Shown here in pieces: positions 7,309 to 48,036 of a DNA stretch of 64,000 nucleotides. The notes beneath the pieces are model-generated. The model ran no database searches. It saw only the letters and a list, made by a program, of their open reading frames with translations, and had not been told where the DNA came from. Location: contig JBJKQO010000049.1 in the NCBI GenBank assembly GCA_046705145.1, positions 591 through 64,590 on the forward strand, read 5' to 3'. Position 1 is the first letter of the stretch. Every line of letters begins with the position of its first letter. The DNA comes from Candidatus Woesearchaeota archaeon. GTDB taxonomy: Archaea; Nanobdellota; Nanobdellia; Woesearchaeales; JBJKQO01. A program made the translations under genes and the position numbers.

Positions 7309-7334
7309 TCTTTTTTTTATTTCTTTTTTTTAAG

Positions 7335-22328: not shown

Positions 22329-25300
22329 CTATCTAGACCTAATAAGTTTCTCAAGTATTAACTTAAGCTCAGGATTGAAATTCTGACCTTCATCAACCAT
22401 CACCATTATATCTTTAAGTGAATAGAAACTTACATCGGCTGGGAATCTCACCCCTGCTTCCTGCCTTTCAGTTATTATTGCCTTATAAGCTATCAGTACC
22501 TTATCCGGGCCGTCTTTTGATGAATAGATATCCTTGCTGAAGAAGAAAAGCATAGGGCTTATACCAATTGACTTCTTGATCTTCCTTAGCGCTGTTTCCT
22601 TAGGGCTTTCTCCTGGTCTTACTTTCTCTCTAAATGCAGTGATAGCAGGCCCATCTTCTTCTGATGAGAGAGTCTTTTGCAGCGCAAGCTCCCCTTTGCT
22701 GTTAAAGAGCAGCACATATGTTATTTCAGGAATGCTGTGCCCTTCATGGATCTGGCCTGAATAGATGCTAAAAGGCGCAGGACCATTTGCATCATCATCA
22801 GTAGGCTTGCTTAACTCTTTTGCTATCCTTTTTTCCCTGGACTGCCTCATCTTGATCTCATCATAATCAATCTCTGCTTTTTTTTGGGACATCTCTTTTT
22901 TTGCTGGAGGGGTAGGTGTAGGTGGCACATATCTATATTTTGGTGGAATATCCCCTTCAGGTTTTTCTTCTTTTACTTTAGGCAAAGCAGTATCCTGATC
23001 CTTAGGTGGCTTCTTTTCTTCTTTTGTCTTTCGGTAAAAAAGGATCAACGCCATGACTATCATCAAAAGAATGATCCAGACATACCAGAAACCAAGGAAT
23101 GACTTTCCATACTCGCCTAATCCTCCCTCTTTTTCTTCTGGTAATGGGATCTCATCGTTAGACCTATCTTTTTGGGTCTCTTCCACAGAAGTACCCTCTT
23201 CTGGCTTTTCTTCACTGATATTACCACCTCCCTTAACGATCTCGCATTCTCCGCAGTCCTCCGGGCAGCTTGAGCATGTCTCGCCATACATGCCAAGGCA
23301 GATACCATCTCCGCACCTTATAGGTATGGATCCTGCCCCACCTGAAGGGCTTGAAGCTATAGTTGTAACAGGAGCGCTCGCAGGAGTTGCAGGAGTGCCC
23401 CTCATCGCAGAATGCCTTAGGTTGCTTACCTTTATCCTTGTCCCGAGGTCCTCGCAGACAAGCCCGTTCTTGTGGACTATACTTGAGTTTCCAAGGCATG
23501 ATGAGAAGTCAGTCTCGTTTGGTCCGGTACATGATGAGGTCATGTTAGATATCCTTATTATCGGAGCGTCCTTCACGCAAAGCGCCACAAAATTATTGTC
23601 TTTTATGTAAAGGCTCTTGTTTGTGCTGAGCTGGCCGCTCATGTTGACTATCAGATAGTTTGCCGAGAGGTTTATCGTTATGTTTGCGAGATCAAGCTTT
23701 GATGCGCTGAAATTATGCGTGAAGTTCATTATGGTATCTGTCGAGTTATAGAACACGACCTGCCGCCTTCCGTCATAAGAGCTAAGGTCTGATGAGCCGT
23801 CTACCCTTATGTTCAGGCCGCTTGCTCCTTCACCACTCACATTCTCAAGGTTCCAGTTAAGGTTATCTTCATTGTCATACACGCCGTCTCCATCAGTGTC
23901 AGTGACATATGACTGGTCAGGATATATCCTGAAATCATAATCCCTCGTGACATTGACGTTTCCTGCATCATCATAGATGTAGAACCTGAAAGAATGGTTC
24001 CCTGAAGTTGCGTTTTTTACAGCCCTAATACTGGCTCTTGACGAGGACAGGTTTACGAAAGAATCGTTTGACCATGACCCGCTCATGTTTGTCGAGAATA
24101 TATAACCTTTCAGCTTATAGTTGTCAAACATGTTCAGCACGACGCTGAAGTTCTCATTGTTGAAAACAGGAGTCTTGTTTTTTATCCCTGAATAATAAGG
24201 CAGGATGTTATCTATCCTGACATATGCAGTTTCAGAGCTCCTGACATTGTTTGAAGGGGTGGCGTTATCAAGCACGTGCAGCGTAACATTCTTGATTCCA
24301 GTCTCATTATCTATGACGACACTTATGTTCCACTGGCTCCAGCTTCCCGTGACCTTGCTTCCGAGGACAAGCCACATAGTGGTGTTTCCCTGCGTGTTGT
24401 TAAGATGCGCAAGCTCTATAAGGGTGTGGTTGAGCCCTGCTCCTGAATCCTGCGAGTCCTTGGCTTCAAGGGTTATCATGACAGGCTGGCTGTTTCTTGC
24501 AGAGGTCTGGTTCTCAGGATATATCACCCGAAGATCTCTTGCATAAGGCATAGACTTGTCTATCGTATAGTTCATGATCCTGGAAGCATTGTTTAGCGAA
24601 GCATCAAATGCAGTCGCCCTGATAGTATATCCTGCTCCGTCAGAAAGCGAGGATACATCCCAGCTGCAGTCATAAGGAGAGGAAGTAGTGTTGCATATCT
24701 GCGTGAACCCTACACTTGAGTTCTTATACTCAAAGAGGACATGACTGATGCCTCCTGAATCATCAGAAGGAACTGTCCGAAGAGTAACGTTTCCGTTAAC
24801 GTATGAGTTATTTCTAGGGGAATAAAACTCAAGCGTAGGAGAGGTCATATCCCTCACAGCAAGGGGCAGATGATCATAATAATCTGTTCCCCCAAAGCGG
24901 CCCACAAGATAAGGATCGTTGCATATCCTGTCTCCGTTCGCATCCTTGCACGTGTCAGAATATCCTGTTGCAGTAGGGTTTGTCCAGTAGTTTCCGCCGA
25001 TATAGCTTTGGCCCATTATGTTTATCCCTGAAGAATAGCTTGTGTTAAACCGGGATATCGCATCAAGATACACGTTATAGGAATTGTTGAGAAGGTTATC
25101 ATATACCTTTACAGTTCCGGAGCTGCCCTGATAATCATCTATGTATATCCCTACTTCAGCGCTGTCCTTGACAGTCGAATTTCTCAGGATGATATCTCCA
25201 GAAGTGACTGAAGCAAAGCCATAGACATCTGAGCATAGACTGCTTGAGGCTACGGCACTGCGCTTGGAATCGATATAATACGCGCCTATAAGGTTGTTAT

Positions 25301-28300
25301 CGCTTCTTGCTCTTGTCAGATTTGTGCTGTTTGAATACTCGACCCAGAACCCGACAAAACAAGACGTGAGATTTGAGTCTGTTATCTTGATGTCCTTTGA
25401 TCTGCTGGCGTGGATCCCTGATGCTTCATATTCATAATAGCCTCCTCCCCCAAAATCCCTGATGCTAAGCTTATCTGCAAAGATGTAAGATGAGTCTCTC
25501 ACAAAGAGGCCTGAAACAAGCCCTCCTGTAAAGTTTGATCCTGTCACGTTTGACCTGGATTCTGAACCCAGCTGAAGCGAGGTCCTTTCGCTCGTTATCC
25601 TAAGCCCATGATACGAGTTCATGCGGCCGCCATAGCTTTGCACTCCTGTGTTGCTGCCGTTTACTGTCACATTTACCAGGCGGCTTGAGTTTGCGCTGCT
25701 CATATACACACCATTTTCGTTGAAATTGTAGATAGAGCAGTTCCTTATCGTTATGTTCCTTATCCCTGAATCGCTTTTCTGGACCTTGATGCCTATGTCG
25801 GGCAGGCTGCCAGAAGCGATGATATACTTCCCATCACAATCGATATCCACATCATCTGCAGACACGGTTATACAGGTGCCATCTTCTGATGTTGTGATAT
25901 TCCCTTCAAGAGAATATGATCCTTTTTGTGTCACTTCCTCACAGCCTGTAATCCTTCCTGTCGATGCTGCTGTATAGTTGATCATTATCGTGCGGTTCTC
26001 CCCCCAGCCTGCATGATAATATATATCATTTGAAAGGCAGTTCCAGGTATAGTTCCCCTTGTATAATGAGATCTGCCACGAGCTTGAGTTTGAGACATTG
26101 CTTATGTTTGTTGTCTGGTTAAGCTTTAGGCTCAGGTTACGGCGGTCCGTGATAAACAGGCTTATGTTTGTCAGGGTGTCAGGATCTGCAGCAGAACAGT
26201 TAAACGTGATTGTGGGAGGGACAGACGTATCATTATAATAGCCCTGTCTTGGCAGGTTCAGGCTTACAGAAGGCGAGCTTGTCAGCACAAGCACAGACCT
26301 TGTCTCAGTGCTGTTGCAGTTTCCAGACCCGTCGCACGCTGTAGCGTTGATATAATACCTTCCTAGCGGAAGCGAGCTGTAGTTCACAAAATAAGGTGAT
26401 GAAACTGAAGACTCCCTCGCATACGTTCCAGTCGAGTTATACATGAATATCGTTATGTTTGTCAGGTTATGATCTGATGCAGTCACATTTATGCTTATCC
26501 AGTACTGCGTCCTGTTCCCCTCGCCGGTAGTATGGCTTGAGAAATTTATGGCAGGATAAATCGTGTCATTGACTGTTATAGCGGATGATGAGGACCTGAA
26601 GTTACCTGCCAGGTCTAAGGCAAGCAAAGATATGTTATACCTTCCTTTCACAGAAATGTTTTCCGGGCTGAGATTGATGCTTCCCAGAGCTGAAGAGGCG
26701 CTGAAAAGCACAGCCCCTCCAGGATAGGTTATGTTAAACGTCACAGCACCCAGGTTCGCGTCACTTGCTGACCAGTTTACCATGACAGAATCATAACCAT
26801 ATTCTGCATCAGAATCATTTATAGTGATAGCAGCTGAAGGTGATGAATCATCGACAGTGAAGCTATAGGGAGGGGTCTGGTTGCGGTTTCCTGTAGTGTC
26901 ATTAAAGAACCACATATAGCTTATCGTCGATGCAGTGATCCTTTTTGAAGCAGAGATCACAGTCCCGTTTTGGTAGGTCTGCGCAGTATCATTTTCCCAT
27001 GATGACCCGTTATAGAAGGAAAAGATATACAGGTCAGGATTTTTCTCGATTATGGTCAGGTTAAAATACACATAATCTCCGACAACAGTGGAAGCGCTCA
27101 TATTCGTCGCATTAGACTCCCATCTTGGATAGACCGCGTCAAGGATAAGGGTCCGGATACTTGTGCGATTGTAATTTTTAGAGGTATCATTGACGCTTGC
27201 ATTGATATAATACGTATCATCTTTCAGGCTTGTAAAGTTTATCGTAAGAGGGAATGATGAGGATGTCGTCGTGTTGACAAGCTCATTGCTTGAGTTAAAA
27301 ATGCTTATCCTTATCAGGTCAGTATTTGTCTCTGTCCCGCTTGCGTTCACAAATATGTAATCTTGGGATCTTGCCTCAAAGTTTGATGTCTTTTCGCCGA
27401 ATTCTATCTTGGGGATAGTGTCGTCCAAAAGGACATACCTTACCTGCGACCTGTTGCACTTGTACTCATCGCATGCTGAAGCATTGTAGTGATACAGGCC
27501 ATCAGCAAGAGAGGTGAAATTGATCGTATTTGGGGAAAATGCCGTAATCGACTGGTTGATCAACGAGGATCCAAAGTAAAGATACACGTTTGCAGACCTA
27601 AGGTTATGATCTGATGTTGAAACATTAACAAAGATAAAATCGCCTGATATGTTCCCGGATACTGAGCCAGTCATCGTCAAGGTAGGATAAAGCGTATCGT
27701 TTACGGTAAAAGCGAAATACGTCGAGTTTGAGTTACCGGCATTATCTTCCGCATAGACAGATATAGTGTAGTTCCCGACATTTGAGAAATTTGCAGGAGA
27801 CAACACGACACTGCCAGACACAAGCTGTGATGAGAACACAGAAGGCCCGAACTCTGAAGTGATGTTTACCATCCTGCTCCTCAGGTTTGAATCGTTTGCT
27901 GTCCAGTTGACATATATCCCTTCAGCCTTGTATTCGATAAGAGAATCATTGGCGTATAGCCTTGCTACAGGGTTTGTGGTGTCAAGATAGATGGCTCTTG
28001 ACAAGGTCTTGTTGAAATGTCCAGCAGAATCATTTATCGAAGCGTTTACAGTGTACAATCCATCAGCAAGGGACGTGAAATTCGAAGCGAATGAAGACAC
28101 AGACCTTTGTGTCGTAAATGCGGAACCTGCAAGAGACCCTGAAGAATCATACAGCTTTATGGTGGTGTTCCTGTTGTTTGATTCAGAAAGGTTCAAAAGC
28201 ACGTATATGTAATCCTGCGAGATGTTTCCTGCAGTTGATGTCAGGGCAGCATATCCTATCTTTGGCAGGACAAGATCGACAGTAATATTTGACGATATCA

Positions 28301-37300: not shown

Positions 37301-40300
37301 TGTCAACAACCATAGCTACATGATGCCAGCCTGTGCCGATGTTTACATTTGTATCGATCCATCGGATGCCTTCATACAGCATGATCAGGTTGTTGCCAGA
37401 ATCATCAAAAGTTGATGCGCCGACCCCTATACCAAAGCCGGTTGATGAATCTCCAATCTTGATGAATGCCCCATCTTCGCTTGCGGAATCCAGGTTAACC
37501 CATGCTGAAGCGCTCAGGTTTCCATTTGTGAGGTTGTATGTTGAAGAAATTGCAACAAGATCATTGCTGCCATCAAAGCTCAGGGCACCACCATACTTTC
37601 CAGAGCTGATGACCTGGGCGCTATATACTGTGCCATTGATCGCATGCATCGATGAATCATTTGCCCTAAATGGGCCTTTTGATGTATTTGAAAGAGTGAC
37701 CAACGAACCTGACACAGCCGTATGAGCAGCGCTTGTAAACGAGCCATTATTGTAGATGTTCTTTCTTGTTGTTCCGTTGCCATCTGTGATGCGTATGTTG
37801 TCCAGGTATCCAGTATACCGTCCAGACGTGTCAGATTCACATACGATATCATAGTACTGGATAGTCTTTCCAACATGAGTTGCAGGGATCGGAATCCTCC
37901 GGTGATACCACTGCTTTAATGCCCTAGATGAAAGCAGCGTATTTGGATGTGCATTAAGGCCATACTGGTCGTTTGCTGTTGACTCCCCCCTTAGTGCAGT
38001 CTCATCAGACGTCGTATAATCAAAAGCTATCTTAGCAGCCGAACTGTCCCAGAAAACATCATATTCAAGATAGTCTCCTGATTGAACAACATAATCAGAA
38101 ACACTTGTAAGATCATAGTACACATAGGAATTTCCGCTTGTTGACATGCTAAATGTTGCATTGATCGACTCTTCAGATGACAATCTGTCCATATCAAGCT
38201 TTAGCAGCAGTGATCTGTTATACAAAGTGAAATTTGTCCCGTTCCAATTATACTTTAAGCTCGCCAGATCAGGTTCAACTATCGTTGCGTTAATCTGCAC
38301 ATATCTTGCAGATTGTGATGAGGCATTTGCAGGCGTAGGAGACGCAAAAGTTATCCTTTGGGCACTTGTTACGCTTTGAGATGTTCCAGTATAATTTCCC
38401 TTAACATACACTGAAACATTGCCATAGTTATTATGATAGCTGTCAGAATTAAGATATGTTGCTTTTGTATCAAATGAAGAGTACCCTCCTGATTCTAAAG
38501 CACAATAATCCCCTGAGCAAGATGACTGACTTGCATATCCTAAAAAGAATGATTCTCCATCCAGCCCTTCATTAAATGACCTGCAGATGTCCAGATATAA
38601 TGTGGAATTGATCCTTCTCGAAATGTTGACGTACTGTTTTTCACAGGTTCTAATTTGAGCTCTCATTGAGGAATTTGTTAGATTTATTGAATAGTCAAAC
38701 CCATTCACATGATCAATAATTCTTATTGATGAGAACGATAGATTATCCCAGGATTTGTAAATTGTTGAGCTTGTTGGATCACTCGAATAGTTGATAGGGG
38801 TGTAATTATGGCTCCAGAAGTACTGTGGCTTAAACACCTGGGCATTTGTCTTTTTTGCAACAAGAGTCCATGGACCATCAGCTGAGGTCATATCACAATA
38901 AACGCTGAATTTGACAATTGGGCCTGAACCATCAGGATCGATCCAATACAATCCATCACCTGTAGAATTTCCGCTTGCAAGTATCTGTGCACAAGATACT
39001 GCAGGTACTTCAGACGACCCATAACCATTAGTAACTGTAACAAACCTTTTTTCTGTTGAATTCTGAAGATTACTTGTATCTTTTGCAAATACCTGGTATG
39101 AATAAGTGCCATCAGACAAACCGGTTGTTGCATTCTTGCTCTGGTTTACATACAAGTTCCAGTATGTTGAATTTATTTTTTGCAGGTTTGAAGCATACTG
39201 TTGGTATACTTCTGCTTTTGTAAGGCTCCTGTTCCACAAAGCAAACGAATCAACATCACCATGGAAAAAGTAATCACTGTCATCAATATCTGTCCCAAAC
39301 CTCACCACTCTGCTGTTAGATAAATCTGTAGCAGCCCATGATGAGCAATCAGTAATATTAGTAATATTTGCATCACGATAGTTTACACAATTGCCGTCCC
39401 TGTCAATAGTGATTGCCACAAAATGCCAATTGCTATCATCCAAATCTATGGTGGCAGTATATGGGCACGTTGCCCCATTACACATGCTTGGGTGGACTGT
39501 ATAGGATGGTGAGCCAAGCCAAAAACCCCATCCGGTATCCGCAGTATCAATAATCTTTTTTGTGACAAACCTTTGATACGTACCATCAAATCGCAGCCAA
39601 AATGTGAATGAGAAATCCTCATTTGCACCAATATCAAGACTATTGTGATCTGCGATATCAATGCGATCATCAACACCATCAAAGTTTAGAGTACGCCCAT
39701 AAACTCCCGTTTCATTCCATGCAGGACTGCCATATATTGTTGCATTGTTCCCATACAAGCTTATGTCTGCAGCATGAGTGCTACTCTCTCCCAAAGCAGA
39801 CACATTGTCAAAGTTTAGCATCAAGACCAATGATTTGTTGTACAATGTGAAATTTGTACCATTCCAATCATACTTTATTTCCTTAAGGTTTGATTCCGTT
39901 ATGCTAATATTTGTCCTTACGTATCTAGCTGATTGTGTTGTTGCATTTGTTGGTGTTGGAGAGAGATAGTGAAGTATCGGATGAATTATATCTGAACTAA
40001 TTGTCAGAACCCTTTTTTCCGTTGAATTTTGGAAATTGTTTGTATCTTTTGCAAATACCTGGTATGAATAAGTGCCATCAGACAAACTGGTCGTTGCATT
40101 CCTTGATTGGTTGACCCACATGTTCCAGTGTGTTGAGTTTATTTTTTGCAGGTTTGAAACATACTGCTGATAGACTTCTGCAGCTGTAAGGCTTCTGTTC
40201 CATATCCTTACTTCGTCAATCTTTCCATCAAAATACTCTCCACCAACATTCCCTTCCCCGATCCTTAAACCAACAGTAGCTGCATTTGGAACATAATTGT

Positions 40301-43300
40301 GACTCCAGTTCCCCACATTTATCCCATTAGCGTAAATGACCATTGTATTTGTAACCCTATTCATAGTAACAACAGCATGGACCCAGCTGCCTATAGGGAC
40401 TGCATAAGAAGACTGATGGGTCTGCCAGGTGCTCCCATCTCCTGTTCCAGCACTTAACTTTCCTGTATCTGAAATCCCCATGTGCCCCTGAGATTTTGCA
40501 GCAGAATCGTGATATATCAGTCCCTTCCACCCAGTCTGGTTTGAATCCCACCTAAACCAGAGAGAATACGAAAAGCTTTTACCTGCACCAAAAGACAGGC
40601 TAGAATCGTTACCGCAATCAATATGATCATTGTTTCCTGCAGTAAAATTATATGCTCCTCCATGTTTCCCATCAGATACATACACTGGGCAACTAGTGCA
40701 ATTTCCATGATTTGCATTTCTTGACGTATCGTTTAGCCTTGTCCAATCATCAAAATTTAGCATCAAGACCAATGAATCGTTGTACATGGTAAAGTTTGTT
40801 CCATTCCAGTTATACTTTATTTCCTTAAGGTTTGATTCTGTTATGCTGATATTTGGCCTTGCATATCTTGTTATTTGACTTGTCGCATTTGATGGTGTTG
40901 GAGATACGAAACTTATCTTTGGTGCTGGATCATATATAATCCATTCATAATTAGTAATATTTGCTTTCCATGCATGATAAGGGTATCCGTCATTTTGATC
41001 AATTTGGGTTGCACTTATGCTCCAAGAAGAGAATGTGCTTATGTTTTTCATGAGTTGTGTTGTTTTTGCAGTCGCTCCAGTTGCAGTATCCTGGTTGCTT
41101 GCACTACTATCAAAGAAATTGTTTTGTGCAGTATCGATATCATCTCCGCAGAATCCCTTATCTGTCGGAGCAGCTGCTCCAGCATAAAAGACACTCCCTA
41201 TACTATAAGAATTTTTTATCGTCGTGTACGTATTGTATCCTACAAACCCCCCAAATGTTGTGGCTGCTTCTCCTGTATTTCGCGTTACATTACCTAAGGA
41301 AAATGAATTATTTATTGTAGTTCCATAACAATATCCGACAAAACCCCCTGTGCTGGAATCACCAATGACATTTCCTGTGCTATAACAGTTCTCAACAACA
41401 CTTGTCCCTTCAGCATCAGTCGTCTCTCTCCAAAGCTGTCCGACAAAACCTCCCGCACGATAGCCTGTGGCGTAGACATCAACACTTGCATATGAGTTTT
41501 TGATATTTGTGATGTATGTAGCGCCAACAAGCCCTCCCATCTGTGAATAGCCTGTAGTACTTGCCTGTGTACTGTTTATGATACCGATCGCATAACAATT
41601 TTCGATCAAGCTATGGTTTGTAGGCCTGGCAACAAGCGCACCCACGCGGTACCTTGCAAGGATGCTGACATTTGTTAGTCCGACATTCCTTAATGTAGCA
41701 TTAGATATTGACCCAAACAACCCCTGGTTGTCCCCGGTAGACCTATTGATGAAAAGCCCATTGATCGTAAGGTTCCTTCCATCAAGATCCCCCTTAAAAG
41801 ATTGCGTTCCGTTCCCTATGGGGATAAACCCTTCTCCATGATTAAATGGGGATATGTTACAATTCACGCTGTTATTAAGAGCATAAAAATAGGTCAATGA
41901 CTCATTTATTGCCTGAAGATCTGAGCAGTCAGTTATCATGCAAGGATCATCCTGCGTTCCAGTTCCTTCCATATTCTCGGGACAATATGAAATTGTTATC
42001 TGCCTAACTTGTGTCGAGTTAGAGTTTACATTTGTGTCCTTTGCAAAGACCTGATATGTATATGTACCTTCACTTAGCCCTACTGTTGAGTTCATGCTCT
42101 GGTTGACATATAGGTTCCAGTGCGTCTGGTTTACCTTATTAAGGTTTGAAGCATATTGTTCATAGATCTCCTCTGATGACAAGGAACGGTTCCATACCCT
42201 AACTTCATCGATCGTGCCATTGAAATTATAACTGGTCCCATCACAACTAGACACACCAATCGTAAGATTCCTGACTGTATCATCAATAGGACCACAGGTA
42301 GAGATGTCGGTAGGGGTGCTATCTTCCTTTCCATCAATATATATCCTTAAGTAATTGCCGTCTTTCACACCGGTGATATGGTGCCATTTTCCATCGTTTA
42401 TGTGGGTCGATCCATGGACTTCAGGAGCACCACATCCAGTATCATCATCGATAATCAAAGCAGAAGATGAAGTCTCCTGTCGATAACCCCACAAGTTATA
42501 CCTTTTCCCTCCTCCACCACAACTGCCTTTAGATATGATCAAATTATACCCTGATGAGACCGTGGTATTTATCCAAGCTGAGACCGTAAAATCATGACTT
42601 CCCATGTTAAAGCTGCTGTCATTACCACAATTGATATAGTCATCATCACCATCAAATTCAAAGGCCCCGCCAAATTTGCCTAAAGATTTCCATACCGGGC
42701 CATTAACTGTACCATCATTTCCTTCCCTACCCAAATCAACAACATAAGTACCATCCTCACCTAATTCGGAAACATTGTCAAAATTCATCATCAGCACAAG
42801 AGAATCATTATATATCGTGAAGTTAGTGCCGTTCCAGTTAAACTTCAACTCTTTTAGGTTAGGCTCAGATATAGACACGTTTATCCTGACAAACCGATTT
42901 GACTGGACACTGTTGTTTGACGGGGTAGGTGAAAGATACTCCAGGTCAGATGTCGAGTAATCATCGCCTACTGACAGGAACCTTTTTCCAGTAGTGTTAG
43001 ACCCGCCAAGAGAGTCGGCCGCAAATGCTGAGTAGCTGTAAAGCCCGTTTGAGAGTCCCAATGTAGCATTCCTGCTCTGGTTGATGTAAAAGTTCCATGT
43101 GTCTGGACCGGTCCTTCCCAGGTTTGATGCGTACATCTCATATATCTCCTGATTCGAAAGGCTGCGGTTCCATATTGAAAACTCGTCTATCCTGCCTATG
43201 AAATATTTCATCTGCGCATCCATCGCATATCCGATAAACGCAGTTCTTGCCCAAGTAAAATCTGACGCTTTTCTTGACCCGTTTGCAACACTGATACCAT

Positions 43301-45089
43301 CAACAAAGATGCTTTGTCCAGTAAAATTGTCCATCCTCTGCACAACATAGTGCCATCTGTTATCAGCATAGTTTTTTCCAGTCGTGCAAATTGTCTGGTC
43401 ATTCCATACGCGCTGGCATATGTTTCCTGAATTGTTAAGATAGATCAGCCTGTCAAACCCTATGTAGTCTAATGTGAATATACTGCAATTAGTGCAGTTA
43501 GTGTTTATCCACATGCCTATCGTGAAGTTTGTAACCATCCTGCTGAAATTAAGATTTTTAGAGTTGTTGACAGTTATCCTGTCATTCCCATCAAAATAGA
43601 ACGCCCCTCCGTACTTTCCGTTTGAAACCCATGAAGGATCAGATCCAGGAGATGAGTTTCCAAGAGTGCCATTGTTCTGCTTAAGGCTTATGTCTTTTAG
43701 GCAGCCTTTCTGGCCTCTTGTCGTGCATTCTGACAGGGAAGACACATTGTCAAAATTAAGCCTGCAGACAAGAGAAATGTTATATATCGTGTAATTTGTG
43801 CCGTTCCAGTTGAACCTGAACTGTGAAAGGCTTGAAGCATTGACAGACACATTGATAATTGCATAGTTATTGTAAGTGATTGCCTTATGGGAAAGTGTAG
43901 GTTGCCTGAAAGATATCTGGTACACCTGTGTCGAAAGGTGAGGAACGACCCACATTATCCTTTCTATAAGCCCGTCATCATCCTTATCCACCACAGTAAA
44001 ACTTACAGGAACAAGAGTGTTGTTCTCAATGTGATAAAGCATTATATCCACTGCAGGAACACCAGGCACGTCTGAATAAGCTTGTATGCTTGTGTAATGG
44101 ACGCCCGAAGATATCGTCACTTTCTTACCCCCAGGCACATCTTCCTCGTATGACTCAGGCCCTTGAGTGTAATACTCGATCTCAAGCTCTCTAAACCCAT
44201 CTTCGACTATTATCTGCTTAATGCTCTCACCAGCGCTTTTTCCCTCCTCCTTTTTTTGGACGATCTCCCTTGTGTTCACTGCCCTTTCTGATCCGTCGAT
44301 CATCGTGATAGAATAGTTTATGGCTCCAGCAAGGCTTATCTGCGTGCCATTGACCAATGTCTGTGACCTAACTGTCTTTTTCCAGGCAACAGGCTGGTTT
44401 ATCACTGCAATGCCCTGCTCATCATATTCAGAAAGTGAAGTTATGTTTACCTGTCTGGAAACATCTGAATCATTTATGCCTGTACTGTTCTCCCCTATGT
44501 CAGTTACGTTTTCAGCCACTCCCTCAATATCTGAAGAACTGACATTACTCTCTTCTGGCTGATCTAGGCCGGAATCTTCATTTTTTCCCACGATGATCCT
44601 AATGTCTCCTGAGACGCTTTTGTTTGAATGAAAAGCATATACTGTAAGCATATATTCGCCTGATATGTTTGATGAGAACAAAAGATCATTGCGCTTGACT
44701 TCTACAACAGAGTTTTCAGGCTGCGTGCTGATGAACGTACACCCTTCTTTTGAAACAAGGCTGTCAAGGTCTATCTCAATCTCATGTTCGGTCTCAAAAG
44801 TATCCTTTTCAGGTTGCCAAAGAAGATCTTGTATAAGATCAGGAGGGTTTTTTGTCTCGCTGTCGTTATCTTCATTTATACTAAGGCTGATATTGCTAAA
44901 GTTGCTATTGCCATAACCTATGCCGATCCTGCCAGCCTCATATAGGTTTTCAGGAATGCTTTTGTTCCAATCTTTTACAGTCATGTTGTCTTCGATGACT
45001 GCCAAGACTCCTTTGGCTATGAAAAACGATACCACAAGCAGGACTATCAAGCTAGCCCTGACATCCAACCTACCCCTTTTTTGTTTCAT
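22329..45089 (-). CDS. giant (7586 aa) type-I membrane surface protein with repeated LamG-like, beta-helix (NosD/CASH-like), beta-sandwich and glycine-rich modules and a cytoplasmic Nudix-like tail
   Basis: Single uninterrupted ORF. The N-terminus is a signal/anchor MKQKRGRLDVRASLIVLLVVSFFIAKGVLA. At least five LamG-type modules are present, with the motifs FDGxDDxI...WIN and IDEVRxWNRSLSxxEIYEQYASNL. Two parallel beta-helix modules end in C(D/N)DPY...DYLPLA. Three roughly 330-aa paralogous modules are present (VYPQ...CDWE...TPFYTNKS...). A stretch of about 150 aa is rich in Gly. NxS/T sequons are extremely frequent throughout. The C-terminal region has a TM helix FLGFWYVWIILLMIVMALILFY (about 23034..23099), then a Pro/Lys-rich linker and a Nudix-like domain. 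The stop is TAG. Confidence 0.8.
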   Translation of the reverse strand: MKQKRGRLDVRASLIVLLVVSFFIAKGVLAVIEDNMTVKDWNKSIPENLYEAGRIGIGYGNSNFSNISLSINEDNDSETKNPPDLIQDLLWQPEKDTFETEHEIEIDLDSLVSKEGCTFISTQPENSVVEVKRNDLLFSSNISGEYMLTVYAFHSNKSVSGDIRIIVGKNEDSGLDQPEESNVSSSDIEGVAENVTDIGENSTGINDSDVSRQVNITSLSEYDEQGIAVINQPVAWKKTVRSQTLVNGTQISLAGAINYSITMIDGSERAVNTREIVQKKEEGKSAGESIKQIIVEDGFRELEIEYYTQGPESYEEDVPGGKKVTISSGVHYTSIQAYSDVPGVPAVDIMLYHIENNTLVPVSFTVVDKDDDGLIERIMWVVPHLSTQVYQISFRQPTLSHKAITYNNYAIINVSVNASSLSQFRFNWNGTNYTIYNISLVCRLNFDNVSSLSECTTRGQKGCLKDISLKQNNGTLGNSSPGSDPSWVSNGKYGGAFYFDGNDRITVNNSKNLNFSRMVTNFTIGMWINTNCTNCSIFTLDYIGFDRLIYLNNSGNICQRVWNDQTICTTGKNYADNRWHYVVQRMDNFTGQSIFVDGISVANGSRKASDFTWARTAFIGYAMDAQMKYFIGRIDEFSIWNRSLSNQEIYEMYASNLGRTGPDTWNFYINQSRNATLGLSNGLYSYSAFAADSLGGSNTTGKRFLSVGDDYSTSDLEYLSPTPSNNSVQSNRFVRINVSISEPNLKELKFNWNGTNFTIYNDSLVLMMNFDNVSELGEDGTYVVDLGREGNDGTVNGPVWKSLGKFGGAFEFDGDDDYINCGNDSSFNMGSHDFTVSAWINTTVSSGYNLIISKGSCGGGGKRYNLWGYRQETSSSALIIDDDTGCGAPEVHGSTHINDGKWHHITGVKDGNYLRIYIDGKEDSTPTDISTCGPIDDTVRNLTIGVSSCDGTSYNFNGTIDEVRVWNRSLSSEEIYEQYASNLNKVNQTHWNLYVNQSMNSTVGLSEGTYTYQVFAKDTNVNSNSTQVRQITISYCPENMEGTGTQDDPCMITDCSDLQAINESLTYFYALNNSVNCNISPFNHGEGFIPIGNGTQSFKGDLDGRNLTINGLFINRSTGDNQGLFGSISNATLRNVGLTNVSILARYRVGALVARPTNHSLIENCYAIGIINSTQASTTGYSQMGGLVGATYITNIKNSYASVDVYATGYRAGGFVGQLWRETTDAEGTSVVENCYSTGNVIGDSSTGGFVGYCYGTTINNSFSLGNVTRNTGEAATTFGGFVGYNTYTTIKNSYSIGSVFYAGAAAPTDKGFCGDDIDTAQNNFFDSSASNQDTATGATAKTTQLMKNISTFSSWSISATQIDQNDGYPYHAWKANITNYEWIIYDPAPKISFVSPTPSNATSQITRYARPNISITESNLKEIKYNWNGTNFTMYNDSLVLMLNFDDWTRLNDTSRNANHGNCTSCPVYVSDGKHGGAYNFTAGNNDHIDCGNDSSLSFGAGKSFSYSLWFRWDSNQTGWKGLIYHDSAAKSQGHMGISDTGKLSAGTGDGSTWQTHQSSYAVPIGSWVHAVVTMNRVTNTMVIYANGINVGNWSHNYVPNAATVGLRIGEGNVGGEYFDGKIDEVRIWNRSLTAAEVYQQYVSNLQKINSTHWNMWVNQSRNATTSLSDGTYSYQVFAKDTNNFQNSTEKRVLTISSDIIHPILHYLSPTPTNATTQSARYVRTNISITESNLKEIKYDWNGTNFTLYNKSLVLMLNFDNVSALGESSTHAADISLYGNNATIYGSPAWNETGVYGRTLNFDGVDDRIDIADHNSLDIGANEDFSFTFWLRFDGTYQRFVTKKIIDTADTGWGFWLGSPSYTVHPSMCNGATCPYTATIDLDDSNWHFVAITIDRDGNCVNYRDANITNITDCSSWAATDLSNSRVVRFGTDIDDSDYFFHGDVDSFALWNRSLTKAEVYQQYASNLQKINSTYWNLYVNQSKNATTGLSDGTYSYQVFAKDTSNLQNSTEKRFVTVTNGYGSSEVPAVSCAQILASGNSTGDGLYWIDPDGSGPIVKFSVYCDMTSADGPWTLVAKKTNAQVFKPQYFWSHNYTPINYSSDPTSSTIYKSWDNLSFSSIRIIDHVNGFDYSINLTNSSMRAQIRTCEKQYVNISRRINSTLYLDICRSFNEGLDGESFFLGYASQSSCSGDYCALESGGYSSFDTKATYLNSDSYHNNYGNVSVYVKGNYTGTSQSVTSAQRITFASPTPANASSQSARYVQINATIVEPDLASLKYNWNGTNFTLYNRSLLLKLDMDRLSSEESINATFSMSTSGNSYVYYDLTSVSDYVVQSGDYLEYDVFWDSSAAKIAFDYTTSDETALRGESTANDQYGLNAHPNTLLSSRALKQWYHRRIPIPATHVGKTIQYYDIVCESDTSGRYTGYLDNIRITDGNGTTRKNIYNNGSFTSAAHTAVSGSLVTLSNTSKGPFRANDSSMHAINGTVYSAQVISSGKYGGALSFDGSNDLVAISSTYNLTNGNLSASAWVNLDSASEDGAFIKIGDSSTGFGIGVGASTFDDSGNNLIMLYEGIRWIDTNVNIGTGWHHVAMVVDKDGEPSGYIDGKKVYSDTLNSDGLVPKGNVTYIGGYAARYVDSYIDEVMIWNRSLTKTEVYEIYATDIKRKNQTHWTLWANQSKNSTASLSEASYDYQIFAKDSLNNQNKSEKRYVTISLADACVNLDDTSTFGTKIRNNSLGYFVNSNITLCTRTYNKTKTVLMANSSNIIIDCDGSMISGALKPSTKGISATLPKVTIQNCVFYRTYTGVYSSAGSTTVLNNSFVQNNRGYECYSCQNSSVKENYFASSQDSNIYASDGKYNNFTNNTIRLAKAYDIYFTGKSQGNRIYDNLINSSASKPIKLPSSQNLWNRTSSAGQNIVGGQYMGGNFYANILGTGYSQKCADSDLDSICDDPYMVFNANNYDYLPLAITSGMDHVPPSVTIVSPSNNTFVNGNVSVYVSATDNTGIKNVVYRVKNSTISNVTICNESSSPYSCTWHTRDYADSSEGYDLSATAYDYAGNTASYLVHFTIDRSIPYSKDVQAVYPPGRSSVRDGQRFSLKVNVSDSEDVGAGINTTEVSLVYLNSSGNVTMVLGSGSRTTGHWSLWNTSLTTSLATSGYSYAPLYVYDNATPLNNIRSSDRFFVYLDNTAPTYANMTNTDAYDDEQVYLTLNAFDDHLLDRVILSTNFSGTWVNETAQTLSYNAYPVSFAKTATSGILSYKFFIFDEAGNSNETAVGSFSTMGPRPQFTVVQISPEENSVFSSASANLTFKYYNGEGVNCSLFIDNILNFTIQNPLNMTVLNFTRPIADGTYSWYVSCFDNITNSSSATSARGFTVDLSAPVVSILYPSETTYASLISDLSFNYAENNPYDCYYSLDGGITNTSIPQCKNLSEVSYSQGHNNLTLYVKDLFGNVGSDSVNFTLDSSYGSWNLNMTNLTEYMPSPAIFYFNITFSDAHPGMYIFSWYNMSEWVNDSAQPYLDNVPASVTKNVTVPTGTINWTWYYNDSFGHRNKTPTWSKTLTYRPVGLGLRVVYPQGNINVTQFGFFNVTLNVTCLNQDCGTVNVSLDPSSQRSVVVWELGDAADYSSGSYAAAQQVATSMGITFNTTASGNSATPPVYSHPFWTKDIIVTSAYTYNYPSGFNYSAISTAFSGGKTIIMDRTYFNQLKTDYGFTDVNYTTSFPCLYTPYILDYMCHPNGGMAISDFSGYQGCDWEGACAVTVGNGFAQLINTSPCASIKSGTVSIEAGTTPFYTNKSRNPYNISLNNGQSQLVTFYVNATGNIGSTHLFNAYANLTSDTDISNMTSFWNVTISDLVSPSWSQNLTNLTVATAPGQSAYFNITISERNPGKYVFSWYNGSVWRNDSAVSYTDGQKVKVNKTIKGRMINWTWYINDSYGNRVKTDVWSKSLYYQYGLGLQLIYPSGSITVDRMQYFNVTMNITCLYLDCGKINVTLDPAVGTAYNFTTCSATGTAGPSQTSCNTAYSGKTLSGQVTVTSGIQRWTVPQTGTYRITAAGAKGDNGDYRTAGYGAKVSGTFILQKGEIINILVGQVPSGNDEGGGGGGGTYVIKNGPDGTPDDVSDILVIAGGGGGAAGNNPYSNGNGGIAARTASTTGTAGNGGAADSGYSNERGAGGGGFTGDGSSISGTNGGKSFVNGGAGGSSYGGFGGGGSLYSDGAGGGGGYSGGNGNDQGGGYGGSSYNSGTYQINTSGANNAAGFVNIMLLSSSKSIISTVSNATPFATNKSRNPYNISLTSRQSQVVMFHVNATGDINSTYEFFAFVNMTTNMSVNNRTIRWNVTIADLTAPSWSGNKTNLTNGTGAGSRVYFNVTVTERSPSHYIFSWYNGSVWRNDSAQRYNDSRSISVVKTINSNNVTVNWTWYINDTSKNWVKTDVWSKRVFAVYALSLKRVYPLSDIDVERLSFFNVTVNVTCLYKDCGQVNVSLDPYTNYKVAVWETGDSGDYNNGAKAVGQQLGTSIGAVLNTSVSGYSSTTPKYSNGFWNNNILILSGSLNYPSGYNYSAISTAFRAGQILIVKRSYFNQLKSVYNLTELHYNSTFNCLRNPYELDYICDNSGGMAITDDSNYMGCDWEHGCAASVGNAFAQLLNTSPCSAVSVKGGLIRTIAGTTPFYTNKSANPHNLTLSSGQSGIITFFVNATGPLDHSYEFYAYSNITGHMSVGNITSHWNVTIKDMTDPAISFGETTTSAGKRPMQTYVIANITASDAYLDKVRVYLYNSTGLVNMTTHTSGAYLRYNDLKAGVYYINATANDTSGNNATLSSRMINLTEPTIRITRVYPQTNIDAPQKRWFNVTVNVTCMYEDCGNVSVSLDPYSNYKIAVWETGDSGDYNNGAKAVGQQVATSIGATLNTSASGYSYTTPVSSNGFWKNNILILSGSVNYPSGYNYSAVSGAFAAGKVLIIKRSYLNQLKTDYGLTEMHYNTSFPCLRTPYELDYICHGSGGIAITDDDSYMGCDWEHGCAVSIGNGFAQLLNSSPCSAVSSKGGLVSTTVGATPFFTNKSANPYIVSLNKSNSTIVTFFVNATGSVGGVYEFYAYATVDAGENITNQTTRWNVTITDINPPTINYGQKTTSSGNLSQSYIRVNVTADDNNFDNITIYLYNASGLKNHTSTTQKKYYVQFNDLPAGTYRINATAFDTSDNAESVTTRIITLDTSSPAISIVSPADLFNATSSSVNFTFSITDNSTNNCSVYIDQEGSVSYLPRSTNSSSRSGSTITLNVSGIAQRRNMWYIRCVDAAGNSNTTTPRRLTVDTSAPLISFDTPTENQSTGYLVYIRTTVSDSLLSVDDSWYYILNTSNRTQVLFQGKLNYTGSWDSAWDTTAHNDVMWNVTLVVYANDTLGNMANDNVSFYLDNVKPVIQLITPPKKELFYSSNFTMDMVAQDASLNYTYYNITNSSGDRVQHNSSIYATSTSRHAWQDIVGVSVLPDGIYNITVFAEDTAKNNRTESARFYVDANAPKMTLNDPEAGAYLSSSSVVFNWTAKDNVSAWMGCNISVGAATRTLTCGNSSPCNVTFSSFQSQTYNFTVYCRDNASNVALISSNITVDLVLPKIGYAALTSTAGNISQDYIYVLLNLSESNNRNTTIKLYDSSGSLAGSAFTTQRSVSSFASNFTSLADGLYTVNASINDSAGHFNKTLSRAIYLDTTNPVARLYANDSLIEYKAEGIYVNWTANDSNLRSRMVNITSEFGPSVFSSQLVSGSVVLSPANFSNVGNYTISVYAEDNAGNSNSTYFAFTVNDTLYPTLTMTGSVSGNISGDFIFVNVSTSDHNLRSANVYLYFGSSLINQSITAFSPNTINFTSLADGLYHYNASACDEYKCNRSQVRYVLLDDTIPKIEFGEKTSNFEARSQDYIFVNASGTETNTDLIRISIFNSSNELVNTTTSSSFPLTINFTSLKDDTYYINASVNDTSKNYNRTSIRTLILDAVYPRWESNATNMSASTVVGDYVYFNLTIIEKNPDLYIFSFYNGSSWENDTAQTYQNGTVISASKRITASTISYMWFFNDTTGNRNQTPPYSFTVDDSSPSAAITINDSDAEYGYDSVMVNWSASDANLGAVTFNITYPGGAVLFSASSALGSINLSPENISVKGRYNISLLALDLAGNFRSSSSAITVNDTIYPAINFSSHTTGEGNRTQYWISINVTASDHNLTNITIFMYNSTGTYARESSVSSPYFVNYSSLPLGRYYINATACDGSGNCNSTETRSVLVLTSSPSVSLNLPRQGYYNDTSVPPTITFNCSAADPDTLTNISLFITDRRNLSLKLNQTTNISNVSNSSSWQISLYKGNYTWNCLSNDIYYHAGWGENRTIMINYTAASTGRITGCEEVTQKGSYSLEGNITTSEDGTCITVSADDVDIDCDGKYIIASGSLPDIGIKVQKSDSGIRNITIRNCSIYNFNENGVYMSSANSSRLVNVTVNGSNTGVQSYGGRMNSYHGLRITSERTSLQLGSESRSNVTGSNFTGGLVSGLFVRDSSYIFADKLSIRDFGGGGYYEYEASGIHASRSKDIKITDSNLTSCFVGFWVEYSNSTNLTRARSDNNLIGAYYIDSKRSAVASSSLCSDVYGFASVTSGDIILRNSTVKDSAEVGIYIDDYQGSSGTVKVYDNLLNNSYNVYLDAISRFNTSYSSGINIMGQSYIGGNYWTNPTATGYSDTCKDANGDRICNDPYLVGRFGGTDYYDHLPLAVRDMTSPTLEFYSPRNNSYVNGNVTLRTVPSDDSGGISHVLFEYKNSSVGFTQICNTTSSPYDCSWDVSSLSDGAGYTIRATAFDASLNNASRIMNYTIDKSMPYARDLRVIYPENQTSARNSQPVMITLEAKDSQDSGAGLNHTLIELAHLNNTQGNTTMWLVLGSKVTGSWSQWNISVVIDNETGIKNVTLHVLDNATPSNNVRSSETAYVRIDNILPYYSGIKNKTPVFNNENFSVVLNMFDNYKLKGYIFSTNMSGSWSNDSFVNLSSSRASIRAVKNATSGNHSFRFYIYDDAGNVNVTRDYDFRIYPDQSYVTDTDGDGVYDNEDNLNWNLENVSGEGASGLNIRVDGSSDLSSYDGRRQVVFYNSTDTIMNFTHNFSASKLDLANITINLSANYLIVNMSGQLSTNKSLYIKDNNFVALCVKDAPIIRISNMTSSCTGPNETDFSSCLGNSSIVHKNGLVCEDLGTRIKVSNLRHSAMRGTPATPASAPVTTIASSPSGGAGSIPIRCGDGICLGMYGETCSSCPEDCGECEIVKGGGNISEEKPEEGTSVEETQKDRSNDEIPLPEEKEGGLGEYGKSFLGFWYVWIILLMIVMALILFYRKTKEEKKPPKDQDTALPKVKEEKPEGDIPPKYRYVPPTPTPPAKKEMSQKKAEIDYDEIKMRQSREKRIAKELSKPTDDDANGPAPFSIYSGQIHEGHSIPEITYVLLFNSKGELALQKTLSSEEDGPAITAFREKVRPGESPKETALRKIKKSIGISPMLFFFSKDIYSSKDGPDKVLIAYKAIITERQEAGVRFPADVSFYSLKDIMVMVDEGQNFNPELKLILEKLIRSR
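29300..34300 (-). repeat. intragenic tandem-like repeats (three roughly 1.1-kb paralogous modules plus a glycine-rich spacer) inside the giant gene
   Basis: The DNA blocks 29941..30105, 31081..31245 and 33721..33885 align at about 75-80% identity (for example ...aagaagctgggcaaa...cttacagcgca...). They correspond to the repeated protein modules. Confidence 0.6.
38150..43850 (-). repeat. five dispersed repeats of the module boundary encoding SPTPxN...NLKExKxNWNGTNFTxYNxSLVLxxNFD, followed by LamG-like domains
   Basis: Similar DNA segments occur near 38200, 39800, 40780, 42800 and 43750 (for example gtgaaatttgtaccattccaatcatactttatttccttaaggtttgattc...). Confidence 0.55.
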
Positions 45090-45277
45090 TTCAAGTAATG
45101 CAGTTTTGCCATCCCTACCTGCCGCACCCGTATCTTATCTGCCCCTTTTAGCTCTGCCAGTGCGACAGCTGCGGTGTTTCTTGATATCTTGAGTTCTTTA
45201 GCTATCTCAACTATCGTAAGCCCGTCAGTTTTCTTTTTCAATAGTTCTATTATCAGATCTATTTTTTTCTTACTCAT
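45086..45277 (-). CDS. small winged-helix HTH transcriptional regulator, translationally coupled to the giant gene
   Basis: 63 aa containing LTIVEIAKELKISRNTAAVALAELKGADKI (HTH). Its TGA overlaps the ATG of the giant gene (ATGA). Confidence 0.6.
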   Translation of the reverse strand: MSKKKIDLIIELLKKKTDGLTIVEIAKELKISRNTAAVALAELKGADKIRVRQVGMAKLHYLK

Positions 45278-45280
45278 TGT

Positions 45281-45355
45281 GCATTATTGCTCAACATTAT
45301 TGATAATTATTATTGTTTATAAATAACGTTGATTATCATTAGTGAGCATTATTGC
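45281..45355 (-). promoter_or_regulatory. promoter region of the regulator/giant-protein operon: TATA box flanked by direct repeats GCATTATTGC
   Basis: tttataaata is at 45316..45325, about 43 nt upstream of the ATG at 45277. A 10-nt direct repeat gcattattgc occurs at 45281..45290 and 45346..45355, with additional ATTATTG iterations between. Confidence 0.4.
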
Positions 45356-45443
45356 ACGATGTATTTATAAAGCTTTTGATTTGTTGCTTTTTCCTTTCTC
45401 GAAGGCTTGATTGCAAGTTTTATGCTTTGCATAAGTTTGCCAT

Positions 45444-48035: not shown

Positions 48036-48036
48036 C

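Follow-up and report, generated by a model that had tools for sequence, protein, structure and literature searches.

A winged-helix gene with a phased promoter array precedes a 7586-residue surface-protein gene in a woesearchaeote and belongs to a conserved cassette

Introduction

Among the giant proteins of DPANN archaea, the SPEARE proteins of the Nanohaloarchaeota are described, in the passages of the source paper covered here, as reaching 8,553 residues and as combining a serine protease with LamG domains and a transmembrane (TM) helix near the C-terminus, with a cytoplasmic, type III restriction endonuclease-like C-terminal region as their most conserved part (Hamm et al. 2019, PMC6642349). 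Large LamG-rich surface proteins have also already been noted in other DPANN genomes. Here we analyze a 64,000-nucleotide stretch, hereafter the window, of contig JBJKQO010000049.1 from a Candidatus Woesearchaeota archaeon (assembly GCA_046705145.1), in which a gene for a 63-residue winged helix-turn-helix (wHTH) protein runs directly into a single open reading frame (ORF) encoding a surface protein of 7586 residues. The original prediction, made from the sequence of this stretch, had proposed a giant surface protein accompanied by a dedicated, translationally coupled and possibly autoregulated wHTH regulator. Our comparison indicates that this pair is one instance of a conserved cassette, in which a conserved wHTH gene and a conserved promoter are combined with an exchangeable surface-protein gene.

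Within the limits of the SPEARE description quoted above, the two kinds of protein have much in common: both are giant DPANN proteins with most of their length outside the cytoplasm, LamG domains, a C-terminal TM helix and a cytoplasmic domain of an enzyme type, and a subtilase domain is present in some of the surface proteins encoded in other copies of the cassette, although not in that of the window. The ten 1000-residue tiles of the window protein, however, gave no match to Peptidase_S8 or to another serine protease, and its tail matched NUDIX only, with no type III restriction relative in an exhaustive search. Since the protease and restriction domains are both absent, the window protein is, judged on its sequence, an analogue of the SPEARE proteins and not a member of that group. 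A further difference is that neither a coupled wHTH protein nor an operator array is mentioned in the keyword-matched passages of the SPEARE paper (PMC6642349).

Two other classes of surface protein invite comparison. Archaeal S-layer glycoproteins (e.g. the csg-type protein of Haloferax) likewise possess a signal peptide, a C-terminal anchor and a sequon-rich ectodomain, but the window protein is about ten times larger, is built as a mosaic of lectin, beta-helix and immunoglobulin-like (Ig-like) modules and ends in a folded cytoplasmic domain. Giant bacterial adhesins such as LapA, SiiE and MpIBP resemble it in their multi-thousand-residue length, their Ig-like spacers and their terminal ligand-binding modules. 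Adhesins of this type undergo type I secretion by means of a C-terminal signal and RTX repeats, whereas the window protein has a signal-like segment at its N-terminus and a TM helix with a cytoplasmic domain at its C-terminus, and no RTX-type family was detected in it by the Pfam tile scan.

On the regulatory side, ArsR/SmtB and MarR autorepressors encoded by the first gene of their operons share with the window locus the winged-helix fold, the leading position in the operon and a palindromic operator lying over the promoter. They differ from it in that the window wHTH protein is only 63 residues long and lacks both the extra dimerisation helices and a metal- or ligand-binding site, and in that a phased 13-bp array at an archaeal TATA-type promoter takes the place of a single inverted repeat. 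Its score against the ArsR/SmtB model NF033788 is 18 bits versus a cut-off of 55, its structural model contains only H1-H2-H3 and a wing, and it has no cysteine. Small archaeal DNA-binding proteins such as Lrs14/AbfR1, Sta1, ORF80 and Sul12a are similar in size, in archaeal origin and in their oligomerisation on repeated sites, and Lrs14-type proteins have been linked to surface and biofilm traits. They differ in their marginal sequence match (E 0.002-0.012 and 16-18 bits versus cut-offs of 80-150 for Lrs14, Sul12a and ORF80-type binders; 15.7 bits versus a cut-off of 90 for the NCBIfam Lrs14 equivalog), in their lineage and in having no conserved coupling to one particular gene. Finally, iteron-type autoregulation (ParR/parC, omega repressor) relies on a small DNA-binding protein spread over phased tandem repeats, its own promoter included; the proteins concerned are ribbon-helix-helix proteins of plasmid partition and maintenance, whereas the locus described here pairs a wHTH protein with a chromosomal surface-protein cargo. 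A search of literature titles and abstracts returned no description of the wHTH family, of its operator or of its coupling to a surface gene, although absence from such records is no proof of novelty. From its sequence features, the combination of wHTH gene, operator and surface-protein gene appears to be an undescribed variant of the autoregulated operon.

Results

The gene pair and its conservation

The three elements that define the gene pair in the window are the following.

22329..45089 (minus strand): giant ORF, 7586 residues (ORF reading, Pfam tiles and in-house iteration of hidden Markov models, HMMs)
45086..45277 (minus strand): gene for a 63-residue minimal winged-helix protein (H1-b-H2-H3-wing; recognition helix I-S-R-N-T; ORF, HTH_11/HTH_24 matches and AlphaFold model)
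45086..45089 (minus strand): ATGA stop/start overlap between the wHTH gene and the giant ORF (sequence; same junction in 44 of 66 loci)

The giant ORF is one uninterrupted frame of 22,761 nt with no internal stop codon, in agreement with the single 7586-residue ORF that had been proposed, and the predicted ATGA overlap is present in the sequence. At this junction (...TTGAAATGAAAC) the TGA stop codon of the wHTH gene has three bases in common with the ATG of the giant ORF, and no Shine-Dalgarno-like run precedes that ATG in the window. The possibility that the ORF is a chimera of collapsed repeats was checked at the DNA level. Internal DNA repeats of the giant gene are at most 85% identical and base composition is even along its length, so that there is no sign of collapsed identical repeats. 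Cluster look-up shows that the giant protein and its wHTH protein are both singletons, known only from one 68.6-kb NCBI contig.

The comparison covered 66 non-redundant loci. These comprise the window, two loci recovered by exact look-up and the loci of a scan of GTDB with one genome per species (66 loci, one assembly each), minus two weak bacterial hits and one locus that duplicated an exact look-up. Nearly all GTDB loci come from metagenome-assembled genomes (MAGs) of Woesearchaeota, Pacearchaeota and Nanoarchaeota, which agrees with the DPANN affiliation originally suggested. The genes neighbouring the pair in the window are archaeal (PCNA, SRP54 and an MCM containing an intein and the winged helix of archaeal MCM). 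A few labels, including those of L054 (VMFF01000055.1) and of L007, L016 and L017, read 'Candidatus Doudnabacteria' or 'uncultured Methanosarcinales'; because the cassette is otherwise confined to MAGs of the three archaeal groups, these look like binning or naming errors.

At 44 of the 66 loci, the stop codon of the wHTH gene forms part of an ATGA with the next ORF. Of these 44, 33 have a G-rich Shine-Dalgarno-like run inside the last wHTH codons; the window has none, so translation of its giant ORF probably depends on re-initiation. Upstream of the wHTH gene itself, a Shine-Dalgarno-like run is found at only 15 of the 66 loci. The ORFs that follow, hereafter the partners, typically encode 0.8 to more than 3.3 thousand residues, and many of them run past the 10-kb flank. 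Partners present an N-terminal hydrophobic segment and a 1.4- to 3.2-fold enrichment in sequons, and many end in a C-terminal TM helix followed by a tail of 35-240 residues, several others having no TM anchor. Modules common to partners and to the giant protein of the window include LamG blocks, a sub-module corresponding to residues 3765-4092, Ig repeats and the stalk that precedes the TM helix; the remaining Pfam content of the partners is diverse (beta-helix, DUF11, MAM, TSP3, subtilase).

Grouping of the 22 full-length partners by their N-terminal 300 residues, and likewise by their C-terminal 300 residues, yields at least 10 unrelated groups, and the giant protein of the window is a singleton in both groupings. 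Seven partners share a C-terminal TM helix and a related cytoplasmic tail, and in both scanned members of the seven (L021:3205-8595 and L046:10198-15243) a Pfam PRC-barrel follows the TM helix. No third conserved gene was detected around the pair, since no family accompanies it in more than eight loci (the best being a GT2-like gene, in eight). Outside the cassette, two large proteins that share modules with the giant protein (P0002 and P0013) are not preceded by this wHTH gene.

Several loci depart from the common arrangement. In L001, the 2224-residue partner overlaps, stop to start, a second large protein (L001:16869-20201, at least 1377 residues) with subtilase and beta-helix matches, which implies that a cassette operon can hold more than one giant gene. 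A divergent wHTH subfamily (L058-L061; about 50% identity, recognition helix T-T-R-H-T) is coupled to ORFs of 380-470 residues with hydrophobic segments; the partner in L060 (L060:10198-11466) matches Polysacc_synt, a Wzx-type flippase family, and is still envelope-related, and the ORF in L058 has no Pfam match. The one Nanohaloarchaea homologue of the wHTH protein that was found (L067) precedes an unrelated AlbA_2/HATPase protein.

A palindrome repeated in a 13-bp register in the cassette promoter

Alignment by eye of the 160-nt regions that precede the wHTH start codons shows a TATA box of the TTTATAAA type and, downstream of it, a palindrome present in several copies. In the window, the corresponding elements are as follows.

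45364..45371 (minus strand): TATA box TTTATAAA, with an A-rich stretch resembling a transcription factor B recognition element (BRE) just upstream (sequence reading)
45343..45358 (no strand): predicted distal operator CGTGCAATAATGCTCA, 17.8 bits (matrix match, palindrome family TGTGCATTAATGCACA)
45278..45293 (no strand): predicted proximal operator TGAGCAATAATGCACA, 21.0 bits, abutting the wHTH ATG (matrix match)
45278..45358 (no strand): six 13-bp units, GTGCAATAATGCT / CACTAATGATAAT / CAACGTTATTTAT / AAACAATAATAAT / TATCAATAATGTT / GAGCAATAATGCA (matrix scoring)

The unbiased seed GCA-N4-TGC reaches 4.55 occurrences per kb in the 160-nt upstream regions, a 23-fold enrichment over its frequency of 0.196 per kb elsewhere in the loci. 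A symmetrised matrix with consensus TGTGCATTAATGCACA identifies at least one site in 59 of the 66 loci and at least two in 45, its 138-fold enrichment being an upper bound. The arrangement of these sites is highly regular. Distances between sites in the same promoter are exact multiples of 13 bp in 49 of 57 cases, with a resultant length of 0.96 at period 13 and of at most 0.76 for the periods of 10-15 otherwise considered; at 30 of 46 loci the TATA centre and the centre of the distal site are separated by 15-17 bp; and at 35 of 46 a gap of 0-4 nt remains between the end of the proximal site and the ATG. For strong sites separated by more than 13 bp, intermediate positions in register score a mean of -6.9 bits versus -24.8 bits out of register (p=3e-24), so that the spacers can be read as degenerate copies of the same 13-bp unit. 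Array size varies from 1 to 8 units across genomes, and in the window the end units are strong and the middle units degenerate.

Within the sequence examined, the palindrome is confined to the cassette promoter. The only two matches to GWGCANNNNTGCWC in the 64 kb of the window both lie there, and only nine strong sites were found outside promoters in about 940 kb of flanks. A reverse scan of JGI metagenome contigs for a TATA box followed by N5-7 and GTGCATTAATGC returned 16 exact matches, of which six were followed by a wHTH gene. These six are exactly the ones presenting a second site; the remaining ten show neither feature and resemble chance hits. Taken with the 44 ATGA pairs, this promoter-confined array lends support to the dedicated, translationally coupled and possibly autoregulated wHTH protein of the original prediction.

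The half-site GTGCA goes together with the ISRNT recognition helix. Divergent wHTH subfamilies (TTRHT, ISRAT) lack the consensus site and present other palindromes in the same place, such as TAATCATTAATGATTA in L067. This joint variation of helix and palindrome is consistent with direct read-out of the half-site by the helix.

The winged-helix protein family

The window wHTH protein scores barely above the cut-offs of generic Pfam models (HTH_11, 25.3 versus 25; HTH_24, 23.0 versus 21.9) and far under every NCBIfam cut-off, and a profile of it found no match among PDB sequences. An AlphaFold (AF2) model computed from a 30-sequence alignment predicts, with good confidence (mean predicted local distance difference test, pLDDT, of 82), a minimal winged helix of H1-b-H2-H3-wing topology. 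The nearest solved folds are repressors of the ArsR, CzrA, MepR/MarR and MJ223 types, with TM-scores of 0.77-0.87 and none with E <1e-3. The family comprises at least 411 clusters of 61-85 residues with 63-78% identity to the window protein, their source names being Woesearchaeota, Pacearchaeota and Nanoarchaeota, and little or no variation is seen in the family alignment at the recognition helix I-S-R-N-T and at the wing G-x-A-K-L-H-Y.

A role in binding Z-DNA was considered on account of fold matches to Zalpha domains (TM-score about 0.8) and of the purine/pyrimidine alternation in GTGCAT/ATGCAC. Zalpha domains carry a tyrosine in the recognition helix, a position occupied here by V or A, and the bases of the site are specifically conserved; this candidate was rejected. 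The PEP-utilising enzymes encoded in the window and in L003 are paralogues (23% identity) and cannot be used to calibrate the conservation of the wHTH protein.

Architecture of the giant protein

Pfam was run on ten overlapping 1000-residue tiles, and domains were counted by self-comparison and in-house profile iteration. Matches were obtained along the entire protein, with the following layout.

44997..45089 (minus strand): Sec-type signal peptide, residues 1-31, MKQKRGRLDVRASLIVLLVVSFFIAKGVLA followed by V (identified by inspection)
37107..43616 (minus strand): region with five LamG/concanavalin-like domains, residues 492-2661 (Pfam tiles, self-comparison, HMM iteration)
35946..36824 (minus strand): beta-helix (NosD-like) and Big_7 module 1, residues 2756-3048 (Pfam tiles, self-comparison, HMM iteration)
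29742..34685 (minus strand): paralogous modules of about 384 residues, residues 3469-5116 (DNA repeats, self-comparison, HMM iteration)
26376..29786 (minus strand): run of Ig-like beta-sandwich repeats of about 80 residues, residues 5102-6238 (Pfam tiles, self-comparison, HMM iteration)
24627..25883 (minus strand): beta-helix and Big_7 module 2, residues 6403-6821 (Pfam tiles, self-comparison, HMM iteration)
23034..23099 (minus strand): single TM helix, residues ~7331-7352 (hydropathy)
22332..22790 (minus strand): cytoplasmic degenerate Nudix domain, residues 7434-7586 (NUDIX profile, homologue alignment)

Hydropathy identifies only two strongly hydrophobic segments, at residues ~7-30, with K/R residues in front, and at residues ~7331-7352, and alignment to the database copy leaves exactly 234 residues (7353-7586) after the latter. 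This is the layout of signal peptide, ectodomain, single TM helix and 234-residue tail that had been predicted, and both topology and domain types support a type-I surface protein that would be exported by the Sec pathway and anchored to the membrane at its C-terminus.

The five LamG domains span residues 492-654, 805-980, 1475-1644, 1796-1966 and 2498-2661, with a best Laminin_G_3 match of E=1.7e-52 in the Pfam tiles. Between them lie Ig-like repeats and GLUG motifs (around residues 1180-1210), and a weak fibrinogen-C/COLFI-like stretch is located at about residues 2015-2100. NosD/Beta_helix is matched twice, each time followed by Big_7, the two blocks being 40% identical to each other; the predicted numbers of LamG-like (at least five) and beta-helix (two) modules were thus recovered. 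The three paralogous modules were also recovered as complete copies (residues 3469-3852, 4348-4731 and 4741-5116), but at about 384 residues they are longer than the 330 first proposed, and a further copy is split by a glycine-rich insert that itself gives a weak ALK/LTK-type match. A homology search with this module returned 18 matches outside the giant protein, all of them to sub-domains and covering 10-30% of the query. About 20 Ig-like repeats, matching Big_13 and related Ig-like families in Pfam, account for the many beta-sandwich repeats reported earlier, and a Cys-rich stalk (residues 7171-7282) precedes the TM helix.

Sequons and predicted glycosylation

The giant protein contains 396 N-x-S/T sequons, compared to 144.8 +/- 9.3 in residue shuffles (2.7-fold, z=27), whereas the reversed control [ST]-x-N, with 143 instances, is at expectation. 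None of the sequons falls in the 234-residue cytoplasmic tail, and cytoplasmic proteins encoded in the window show no enrichment, with ratios of about 0-1.1. Such an orientation-specific excess, limited to the ectodomain, is the pattern expected from selection for N-glycosylation, and it backs the suggestion of the original prediction that the protein may be heavily N-glycosylated. The accompanying statement that sequons occur every few residues was correct as to enrichment and overstated as to density, which is one per 19 residues.

Upstream of the cassette and on the same strand, a tight cluster of genes for the UDP-N-acetylglucosamine (UDP-GlcNAc) pathway is suggestive for glycan supply.

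46254-50615 (minus strand): cluster of GlmS-like, GlmU-like (NTP-transferase and hexapeptide) and phosphoglucosamine-mutase-like genes (Pfam)

These glmS/U/M-type genes were considered as a part of the system and rejected, as they are not conserved beside the cassette in other loci.

The cytoplasmic tail

A word-index search with the 234-residue tail found no relatives. An exhaustive HMMER search of 1.84 billion representatives returned about 30 small proteins (130-170 residues) matching tail residues ~90-230, and all 16 of the aligned homologues are NUDIX proteins by Pfam; the tail is homologous to canonical Nudix proteins of about 165 residues. Scanned alone, the tail domain itself matches NUDIX (PF00293) with 23.4 bits versus a gathering cut-off of 21.1, which adds a degenerate Nudix domain to the predicted tail. 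In the alignment, the R-E-x-x-E-E-L-G-I of the homologues corresponds to R-K-I-K-K-S-I-G-I in the tail (R-E-x2-E-E to R-K-x2-K-S), so that the catalytic Nudix box (G-x5-E-x7-R-E-U-x-E-E-x-G-U) is not matched. With the glutamates of the box replaced, the metal-binding residues are lost and the domain is probably inactive, making it probably a non-catalytic binding module. A single-sequence AF2 model of the tail has a pLDDT of 43, too low for its fold to be used. The tail was not found in any cassette partner elsewhere in the partner comparison.

Discussion

Proposed mechanism

Starting from the anatomy of the locus, the conservation of the pair and the architecture of the promoter array, all obtained by computation, the balance of the evidence in our view favours an autorepressed two-gene operon that would encode the wHTH protein and the main surface adhesin or coat protein, as one case of the conserved cassette. 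We infer that the wHTH protein would bind the palindrome GTGCA-N4-TGCAC as a dimer. Copies of this site, in 13-bp register, occupy the interval that begins about 8 bp after the TATA box and ends at the start codon. Cooperative binding along the array would cover both the region of polymerase recruitment and the transcription start, and would thereby repress the operon that encodes the binding protein. At archaeal promoters, transcription is expected to start about 25 bp beyond the TATA centre. Archaeal regulators such as MDR1, LrpA, Phr and TrmB/TrmBL1, which bind on the downstream side of the TATA box, act as repressors by preventing the recruitment of polymerase; because the array extends from downstream of the TATA box over the expected start to the ATG, its occupation should do the same. 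The mRNA would yield the regulator first, and the giant ORF would depend for its translation on that of the wHTH gene. The level of wHTH protein would then report operon output and provide negative feedback on a costly 22.8-kb gene. As to the cargo, LamG domains of lectin type, pectate-lyase-like beta-helices, Ig-like spacers and glycans would suit a carbohydrate- or cell-binding fibre or coat, most likely serving attachment to a host or substrate, or the formation of a cell coat. Host attachment, as read from domain types, is plausible for a DPANN archaeon.

A number of points weigh against this interpretation. The adhesive or coat function of the giant protein is deduced from domain types only. 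Near-1:1 coupling to the surface gene would produce the regulator in amounts unusual for a specific repressor, and the 63-residue protein shows no evident dimerisation element, unlike ArsR and MarR proteins. A few close wHTH homologues precede small or non-secreted proteins (L003, L020). With regard to the operator, the matrix was trained on the same promoters that it was used to score, leaving 23-fold as the unbiased enrichment; the two GWGCANNNNTGCWC matches in the window taken alone reach only p~0.05; seven of the 66 loci, all with divergent wHTH proteins, lack the consensus site; and neighbouring dimers in a 13-bp register would not share one face of the DNA helix, an unusual arrangement for a simple operator. 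The cytoplasmic tail of the surface protein was also considered as a means of sequestering the regulator; since different partners have unrelated tails, this is unlikely.

Alternative explanations

The giant protein and its cassette counterparts could be S-layer or cell-coat proteins instead of host adhesins, which would make the cassette a coat-protein operon. The presence of a single cassette locus per assembly among the GTDB hits would suit such a role, as would the signal peptides, C-terminal TM anchors and sequon excess of the partners, which are typical of archaeal S-layer glycoproteins, and the fact that other large proteins sharing their modules are not preceded by this wHTH gene. Partner size, however, ranges from 0.8 to 7.6 thousand residues and domain content varies (subtilases, TSP3, MAM), the N- and C-terminal regions fall into at least 10 unrelated groups, several partners have no TM anchor, and 7586 residues is far above known S-layer subunits. 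We consider this reading unlikely, though it deserves serious weight, and coat and adhesin roles are not mutually exclusive.

Rather more doubtful is the proposal that the wHTH protein acts as an activator or as a bistable switch under positive autoregulation, so that cooperative filling of the array would switch the operon fully on in part of the population, yielding a phase-variable surface protein, and changes in repeat number would tune the switch. Phase variation is common among variable surface proteins, genomes differ widely in their number of 13-bp units (1 to 8) and the arrays look cooperative, all of which would fit; but the array is placed after the TATA box and across the expected transcription start, and known archaeal activators bind upstream of the BRE and TATA elements.

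The very small size and very high conservation of the wHTH protein, the high output implied by translational coupling and the weak resemblance to small archaeal DNA binders of the Lrs14, Sul12a and ORF80 types would also be compatible with an abundant chromatin protein whose gene simply happens to lie there, or with a structural or elongation-supporting factor that loads at the 5' array and assists polymerase through very long genes, in the manner of RfaH at ops. We regard this as improbable, given that the site is sequence-specific and restricted to the protein's own promoter in about 940 kb of flanks, that partners of only 0.8-1 thousand residues have the same arrangement and that the wHTH protein has no NusG/Spt5-like features.

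It is also conceivable that the palindromes form hairpins in the mRNA leader that control translation initiation at the first ORF, the target of the wHTH protein being unrelated. Palindromes can form hairpins, the start codon directly adjoins the proximal site and a Shine-Dalgarno-like run is missing in front of most wHTH genes. This explanation is nonetheless very hard to sustain: the distal site keeps a fixed distance of 16 bp from the TATA box and lies mostly upstream of the expected transcription start, the potential stems are only 5 bp long with 4-nt A/U loops, and the site varies together with the recognition helix. The least credible alternative is an assembly artefact in which repeats have linked several surface-protein genes into one chimeric 22.8-kb ORF, for although the protein is internally repetitive and known from a single contig of a single assembly, the divergence of its repeats, its even composition, an open frame with domain matches throughout and the existence of cassette partners of more than 3,300 residues in other assemblies all speak against it. 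Neither site geometry nor sequence evidence favours any of these alternatives.

Significance

Taken by itself, the giant protein is a further example of the large LamG-rich surface proteins known from DPANN genomes. What the comparison adds is that the 63-residue regulator, its operator and the ATGA coupling have been kept across dozens of species while the cargo gene was swapped, so that the cassette acts as a sequence tag singling out one particular surface-protein gene per genome. We tentatively extend the autorepressed-operon interpretation to a view, possible but in our judgement not likely, in which the cassette is a single 'expression site' for swapped mosaic surface genes, with a wHTH filament on the array exerting switch-like or feedback control of the one protein in contact with the host. 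Should this hold, locating the cassette in any member of these lineages would reveal which gene is the key one for host interaction or coat formation, and a filament on a phased array would be of a kind not yet described for archaeal promoters. The Woesearchaeota and Pacearchaeota are abundant and, to our knowledge, uncultured, and the cassette offers a compact protein-DNA system (63 residues plus a 16-bp palindrome in a 13-bp register) that can be tested in vitro without cultivation. It may further exemplify how a tiny cell limits expression of a gene of about 23 kb, a sizeable share of a probably small genome. The dead Nudix tail of the window protein and the PRC-barrel tails of other partners suggest, in addition, that these surface proteins also have partners in the cytoplasm.

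Other features of the window

Three further loci of the window were annotated.

62784-63989 (minus strand): MCM gene, C-terminal part, with an intein splicing domain ahead of the P-loop domain (Pfam)
15579-18980 (plus strand): 1133-residue protein combining an M4 peptidase domain of the thermolysin type with MopE-type metal-binding motifs and an Ig-like domain (Pfam)
54326-57820 and 57845-60415 (minus strand): two adjacent large ORFs of 1164 and 856 residues (ORF list)

The MCM gene probably continues beyond the listed ORF or the end of the window. The M4 protein, the second large protein of this kind in the window, is mildly enriched in sequons (1.9-fold) and probably secreted, and has neither a wHTH gene nor an operator. 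The 1164- and 856-residue ORFs have no Pfam match and a sequon content near expectation.

Between the cassette promoter and a divergently oriented CBS-pair gene (45748-46170, plus strand) lies a stretch of about 270 nt (45425-45700, minus strand) that is a candidate structured RNA. Rfam gave no match in the window at gathering thresholds, the best for this stretch having an E of 0.18. A TATA-like TTTATATAA is located at 45716-45724, the 5' and 3' ends of the stretch pair with each other (GCCAUCAG...CUGAUGGC), and its predicted folding energy is -103 kcal/mol (z=-6.9), with 0 of 200 shuffles as stable.

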